This document shows positions 3,000-3,308 of a stretch of 3,308 nt of DNA, piece after piece (positions within the stretch are counted from its first letter, which is position 1; each line of letters opens with the position of its first letter). A program made the translations under genes and the position numbers. The stretch is from the NCBI RefSeq assembly GCF_003334765.1, contig NZ_QOWT01000070.1. One strand, 5' to 3'. The DNA comes from Escherichia coli (GTDB lineage Bacteria; Pseudomonadota; Gammaproteobacteria; Enterobacterales; Enterobacteriaceae). The notes below the pieces were generated by a model. The model did no database searches and had not been told where the DNA came from. It saw only the letters and a program-made list of their open reading frames with translations.

Positions 3000-3231
3000 A
3001 TAGATTAGTTGTACATTACCACGATTTTGACTCGGCTCATTATTTGCCCGCTTGAGACATTGTTTCCATATGTACGCGGGCGAATAAATAGAGGAATCTG
3101 ATTACTTCCTTCATGGGGATGCTGAAAAGAGTAGTAATTGCTTTTACCATACTGGATTTCATTCGTACCATCATTGGAGAGTTGAAAGCCTATTTGACCC
3201 GCACCGTCCTCACTGTTTTCTAACTCATTTT

Positions 3232-3308
3232 GGTAATGACTCCAACTTATTGATAGTGTTTTATGTTCAGATAATGCCCGATGACTTTGTCATGCAGCTC
3301 CACCGATT
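3232..3308 (-). mobile_element. IS1 end (inverted repeat proximal to insB), partial; element continues beyond the window end
   Basis: 3232-3308 reads GGTAATGACTCCAACTTATTGATAGTGTTTTATGTTCAGATAATGCCCGATGACTTTGTCATGCAGCTCCACCGATT, which I recognise as the IS1 terminus: a terminal inverted repeat beginning GGTAATGAC, then the 3' end of insB on the opposite strand. Confidence 0.9.
3247..3308 (-). CDS. insB: IS1 transposase InsB, C-terminal fragment only (CDS runs off the window end)
   Basis: Minus-strand frame ends ...HYLNIKHYQ with TAA stop at plus 3249-3247, 15 nt inside the IS1 terminus, as in canonical IS1. Only about 19 codons are inside the window. Confidence 0.8.
   Translation of the reverse strand, partial: SVELHDKVIGHYLNIKHYQ

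Follow-up and report, generated by a model that had tools for sequence, protein, structure and literature searches.

An IS1 junction between nhaR and rpsT of Escherichia coli as a probable scar of an O-island 1 deletion related to that at K-12 IS1A

Introduction

The insertion sequence IS1 normally generates a target duplication of 8–9 bp when it inserts. Resident IS1 copies are also established agents of adjacent deletion, which takes place by intramolecular replicative transposition. The classical signature of such IS-promoted adjacent deletions is that one IS flank is kept and the other is replaced, that there is no target duplication, and that the endpoints are nested.

For IS elements, adjacent deletions that leave no duplication and enlarge step by step have been described (PMC11708052). 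In E. coli K-12, IS1A (insA1/insB1) is situated between nhaR and rpsT. It and one other copy are the main contributors to IS1 transposition, and a terminator shields it from transcription of rpsT (PMC12428005). In E. coli O157:H7, O-island 1 (OI-1, z0020–z0025) is a putative fimbrial island, and its z0021 gene (fmrA) represses flagellar motility (PMC10877973; PMC9387321).

The DNA analyzed here is a stretch of 3,308 nucleotides from E. coli, termed the window, which ends inside an IS1 element downstream of nhaR. Element, locus, island and mechanism have all been described before, and PGAP annotates the arrangement in more than 100 genomes. What the comparison adds is that K-12 IS1A appears to mark the final stage of an OI-1 deletion linked to IS1, and that the window is 89 bp less eroded.

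Methods

Junctions were counted in 5426 complete genomes with queries of 30 + 30 bp at E ≤ 1e-8, which separate matches of the two halves cannot satisfy. Queries of 120 bp over-counted: half-matches up to ~560 bp apart were joined, so that the K-12 query gave scores of 100% even in window-type genomes. Four genomes with the exact window junction, from Mozambique, China, Turkey and New Zealand, were fetched. One of these, SLK172, differs from the window at 2 of 3308 positions.

Results and Discussion

The IS1 right end

The features of the window are the following.

98–400, minus strand: hokC/mokC toxin gene with the sok antisense RNA, a type I toxin locus
836–2002, plus strand: nhaA
end at 2967, plus strand: nhaR
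2968–3231: interval between nhaR and IS1, 264 bp
2975–2999, no strand assigned: G+C-rich hairpin with the core CTCCCCC...GGGGGAG, between the convergent stops of nhaR and of the fimbrial-gene remnant
3005–3231, minus strand: 3′ remnant of a "fimbrial family protein" gene, z0020/z0021-like, the nhaR-proximal gene of OI-1
3113–3223, plus strand: 36-aa small open reading frame, antisense within the fimbrial-gene remnant
3143–3231, no strand assigned: 89 bp of the remnant kept here and lost in K-12, from comparison of the junctions
3223–3231, no strand assigned: nine host bases adjoining IRR (ACTCATTTT), unduplicated at the other IS1 end
3232–3308, minus strand: IS1 right end, 77/77 identity to K-12 IS1A
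3232–3254: IRR, the terminal inverted repeat, identical to the IS1A IRR
3250 to the window edge, with the stop at 3247–3249, minus strand: 3′ end of insB (InsAB′ transposase), its translation ending in SVELHDKVIGHYLNIKHYQ and the stop

Direct reading of the sequence places the start of IS1 at position 3232, with GGTAATGACTCCAACTTATTGAT, and IS1 fills the window from there to 3308. All 77 bases are the same as the first 77 bases of K-12 IS1A, and similarity of the host DNA to IS1-free genomes breaks off exactly at position 3231. The same 77 bases find matches at thousands of annotated IS1 transposase loci of complete E. coli genomes, and chance is thereby excluded. The first-pass annotation of this DNA, made from the sequence alone, had placed the terminal inverted repeat at 3232 and the insB stop 15 nt within the element, and both assignments hold, as does the identification of the element as IS1. 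The triplet TTA at 3247–3249, read on the minus strand, is the TAA that ends insB, and it coincides with the end of the transposase coding sequence annotated by PGAP in genomes that share the junction. The junction was correctly placed as well, but the nine-base host flank was quoted one position off: AACTCATTT is found at 3222–3230, and positions 3223–3231 read ACTCATTTT.

The window contains only one IS1 end and, as had been stated, the opposite junction lies beyond it. Full copies with the window junction display the terminal inverted repeats of ~23 bp that characterize the IS1 family (GGTAATGACTCCAACTTATTGAT and GGTGATGCTGCCAACTTACTGAT), and IRR and IRL agree at 18 of 23 positions. The full element is 767–768 bp long in all four fetched genomes. 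Genomes that share the junction have the organization of a ~768-bp IS1, with insA and insB′ and a programmed -1 frameshift, and the element is annotated there as an IS1A-family transposase; the window displays only 77 bp of it. The window terminates in the IRR of a complete 768-bp IS1 whose transcription is on the minus strand, toward nhaR.

The host sequence between nhaR and IS1 is mostly taken up by the fimbrial-gene remnant, which consists of 74 complete codons and a stop (3005–3229) plus 2 nt of a broken codon. The intact gene has 319 aa, and the N-terminal ~245 codons are absent from the remnant. The translated remnant, NELENSEDGAGQIGFQ...KIVVMYN followed by the stop, agrees with the C-terminal part of the gene that strain J6 has intact (319 aa), and with the O157 copy. 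In the remnant frame there is no start codon that yields a product of 30 aa or more, and PGAP calls the remnant an incomplete pseudogene without its N-terminus in the records that share the junction. Searches of Pfam and NCBIfam with the remnant and with the intact 319-aa fimbrial-family protein gave no match.

The 36-aa small open reading frame that the first-pass annotation placed next to IS1 is a mechanical reading frame antisense to this minus-strand remnant. It has no NCBIfam match, the fetched records annotate no plus-strand feature at 3113–3223, and it is most likely not a gene. Positions 3005–3231 are better annotated as a minus-strand pseudogene fragment than as a spacer with a plus-strand small open reading frame.

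Outward promoter activity from the IS1 end had also been suggested, and this finds no support: a sigma-70 consensus scan of positions 2900–3308, which is a weak test, detected no promoter-like site that bridges the junction of IS1 and its flank. The scan gave a single promoter-like site within the remnant, at 3068–3039 on the minus strand, which is no more than shuffled sequences give. The hairpin at 2975–2999 folds at -18.4 kcal/mol on the plus strand and -16.3 kcal/mol on the minus strand (z-scores -3.8 and -4.6). It was not called by a terminator consensus scan of positions 2900–3308 and displays no T-tract; possibly it could limit read-out from IS1 into the nhaR antisense strand.

In the hokC/mokC toxin locus, the sok antisense RNA (Rfam RF01794, 248–400, minus strand) is recognized at 118 bits.

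The opposite end and the absent target duplication

In the four fetched genomes the nine bases outside IRL are TACCTCAAT, as against ACTCATTTT beside IRR, and there is no 8- or 9-bp target duplication at this IS1 copy. IRL is followed by TACCTCAATGTGTATCAC and then, ~250 bp further, by the 3′ end of rpsT; this flank lies downstream of rpsT. The first-pass annotation had put forward the bases next to IRR as a candidate 9-bp duplication produced by simple insertion. It had specified beforehand that absence of the duplication at the other end would speak for rearrangement instead, and that is the result obtained. The missing duplication concerns the history of this copy and not its identity as IS1. 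A synthetic query for simple insertion, with ACTCATTTT repeated at the IRL side, was found in none of the 5426 complete genomes.

Two other strains served as positive controls. In J6 the locus carries an IS1 with a perfect 9-bp duplication, CTCAATGTG, and keeps remnants of the island. In NDM6, which is ST167-like, an IS1 variant of 96% identity is present in the fimbrial gene with an 8-bp duplication, CTGAAAAG. The test is thus able to detect duplications of both lengths.

The missing island

Comparison with IS1-free strains had been proposed as a means of reconstructing the sequence before insertion. It shows that the two flanks are not contiguous there: they lie at positions 9332 and 15750 of the IS1-free O157:H7 locus, and 6417 bp are missing between them. 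Besides the remainder of the fimbrial-family gene, the lost segment encodes an usher, a chaperone and a fimbrial subunit and includes the effector gene espX1; it is collinear with OI-1 of O157:H7 between nhaR and rpsT. Unlike in O157:H7, all that survives of the nhaR-proximal gene here is its last 74 codons, the IRR end truncating that fimbrial-family gene at about codon 245. IS1 occupies the place that in most E. coli belongs to the ~6.4-kb OI-1, between nhaR and rpsT. The G+C content of the missing segment is 36.8%, compared with 49.7% for the nhaA–nhaR region, and both breakpoints are AT-rich (32.5% G+C).

Measured against the J6 and NDM6 loci the gap is smaller, about 3.96–3.97 kb, owing to a 2.4-kb internal operon deletion in these strains. 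This deletion is common to both (O157 reference positions 11411–13852) and has removed the usher N-terminus, the chaperone and the major subunit. Its point is at 7664–7666 of the J6 locus and at 11245–11247 of the NDM6 locus. Decay of the island is therefore independent of IS1 in some lineages.

The fimbrial-family gene of O157:H7 (locus positions 9106–10066, minus strand) is itself frameshifted after about residue 99, which yields a 108-aa N-terminal open reading frame and a separate C-terminal one. Judging from these reading frames and from reviews, the N-terminal 108-aa open reading frame is probably z0021 (fmrA) and the C-terminal one z0020. If true, FmrA, the motility repressor, would derive from the N-terminal part of a disrupted fimbrial-type gene, of which strains such as J6 carry an intact 319-aa version.

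Relation to K-12 IS1A

The window does not represent the state of K-12 MG1655, in which the IS1 junction comes 89 bp earlier. There, IRR adjoins the base corresponding to window position 3142, and the junction reads GTAGTAATTGCT followed by GGTAATGAC. On the O157 locus the K-12 breakpoints are at 9243 and 15750, with 6506 bp missing. The fimbrial remnant is annotated with 228 bp here versus 138 bp in K-12.

In other respects the two copies are alike. They have the same orientation and the same junction of IRL with TACCTCAATG, they are identical over the visible 77 bp, and over the full 768 bp they differ by 1–3 nt. K-12 IS1A likewise lacks a target duplication, and its position at a deletion of O-island 1 would explain this. 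The left flanks of window-type and K-12-type genomes differ at 1–2 of 2300 positions. Their right flanks show no difference in the first 1150 bp, the first being at position 1151. O157, 042 and J6, in comparison, show 31–44 left-flank differences from the window and K-12 types. This near-identity shows the IRL junction and both flanks to be identical by descent to those of K-12 IS1A. Since the window's IS1 is almost identical to K-12 IS1A, it is presumably active too.

The right (IRL) junction was found in 534 of the 5426 complete genomes. The window-type left junction is present in 107 genomes, and the K-12-type left junction gave 427 matches, of which one is spurious (at rcnA), leaving 426. 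The sum of the two left types, 533, compares with 534 for the right junction; there is a single fixed end, with essentially only two variable ends, as adjacent deletion from a resident copy calls for.

Origin of the junction

IS1-mediated adjacent deletion, in nested steps, probably explains the window junction. The pattern at this locus is the same as that of classical IS1-promoted deletions. It also resembles the "IS-del" events of IS150 in the Lenski lines in that one flank is kept, no duplication is present and the deletion enlarges stepwise, although the steps here are deduced from natural isolates and not from a time series (PMC11708052).

The process would have begun with a simple insertion of IS1, most likely into the AT-rich DNA that separates espX1 from the rpsT terminator; other strains have independent IS1 junctions 3 and 24 bp away from this site. 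Intramolecular (replicative) transposition from IRR into the fimbrial gene would then have removed the intervening DNA and one copy of the duplication. The product would be the window junction, with ACTCATTTT as the retained copy of the intramolecular target. A further deletion of the same kind, of 89 bp, would lead to the K-12 state; it is placed last because the window type keeps ancestral sequence that is absent from K-12. From this we infer that the direction was from window type to K-12 type. The predicted precursor would retain OI-1 and have TTTAATACCTCAAT joined to GGTAATGAC. With TACCTCAAT duplicated and the island intact, this precursor was found in none of the 5426 genomes by a synthetic-junction query; only J6 comes near, offset by 3 bp and in a divergent background.

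The order of events could also be reversed, IS1 entering the fimbrial gene first and the deletion then starting from IRL. For the window type taken alone this is equally parsimonious, and it would predict CATCACC joined to ACTCATTTTTTAATATG, but its intermediate is absent from the 5426 genomes. What the synthetic queries for the two candidate ancestors did detect were different IS1 events. Simple insertion with a 9-bp target duplication has practically no probability left: the element is a bona fide IS1 and J6 and NDM6 show duplications at the same locus, but the two flanks, ACTCATTTT and TACCTCAAT, are 6417 bp apart in IS1-free genomes, which refutes it. A very unlikely variant is a single-step "insertion with deletion", in which IS1 is captured at a break during the deletion with no prior resident copy. 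No duplication would be expected from it, the pre-deletion intermediate is absent among the 5426 genomes, and such a process has been proposed for some IS5 and IS481 events; however, the cases of the long-term evolution experiment (LTEE) were all resolved into stepwise adjacent deletions (PMC11708052). The K-12 and window pair also argues against it, as IS1 stayed in place while the IRR flank changed, which is what a resident copy deleting outward would produce.

Homologous recombination between an IS1 at 3223–3231 of the fimbrial gene and a second copy, in direct repeat, downstream of rpsT is an unlikely source of the junction but deserves more weight than the single-step event. It would delete the island and one IS1, leaving a hybrid copy with one flank from each parent, and thus would give the same scar, likewise with no duplication. 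Recombination between IS1 copies is a common cause of missing duplications (PMC11708052). The locus has been hit by IS1 repeatedly, with at least five distinct junction sets, so that two simultaneous copies are conceivable, and polymorphisms between IS1 copies are too few to reveal a chimera. On the other hand, recombination needs two insertions and a recombination event for the window type and another insertion and recombination for the K-12 type, whose IRL junction is the same, whereas adjacent deletion needs one step for each, and neither parental junction was found among the 5426 genomes.

Meaning of the junction

On the reading as an adjacent deletion, the junction is a deletion scar without a dedicated function. 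Its consequences are that the island genes are lost and that a potentially active IS1 is retained. A natural lineage, represented by 107 complete genomes, would thus preserve an earlier stage at which 89 bp more of the fimbrial gene remain; the significance of this is modest. For studies of IS1A transposition, the locus may offer a natural example of the K-12 copy, or of its immediate ancestor, deleting adjacent DNA from IRR.

A broader proposal can be offered tentatively. The nhaR–rpsT region may be a recurrent site of IS1 "erosion", at which IS1 inserts into ~25 bp of AT-rich DNA downstream of rpsT and ratchet-like deletions from IRR remove OI-1 and are halted only at nhaR, which is under selection, with the window type as a surviving intermediate of the K-12 state. 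Repeated loss of the island (at least two independent cases) might be favoured by the removal of an FmrA-like motility repressor.

Other insertion sequences at the locus

An independent, IS1B-like copy (locus positions 4502–5269) replaces the same island in the O111:H8 strain 7-55 62A. Its breakpoints are at 9773 and 15774 of the O157 reference, with 6000 bp missing and no duplication. This event has left a gene remnant of 669 bp on the left side, and its junction is present in 1 of the 5426 genomes. E. coli 042 carries an IS1 (locus positions 9910–10677) within the nhaR-proximal fimbrial gene. It, too, lacks a duplication, and 47 bp of its target are gone (reference positions 9911–9957), either by a small adjacent deletion or by insertion with deletion. 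The IS1 of J6, at locus positions 9564–10331, is an independent simple insertion 3 bp from the window-type IRL site.

Downstream of rpsT, a span of 25 bp holds three independent IS1 junctions, at reference positions 15750, 15753 and 15774. The AT-rich stretch 15750–15774 looks like a local hotspot for IS1 targeting. Every IS1 copy found at the locus has IRR toward nhaR, which is uninformative as the queries were orientation-specific.

Elements of other families are present near the opposite end of the window. The first ~74 positions are wholly unlike two relatives that have no IS beside mokC, and correspond to the end of an IS4-family element of the IS421/IS186 type, which adjoins hokC/mokC in K-12-like genomes. 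Two different IS elements therefore bracket the window. In addition, some genomes that share the IS1 junction have an IS150 between mokC and nhaA, as does NDM6.
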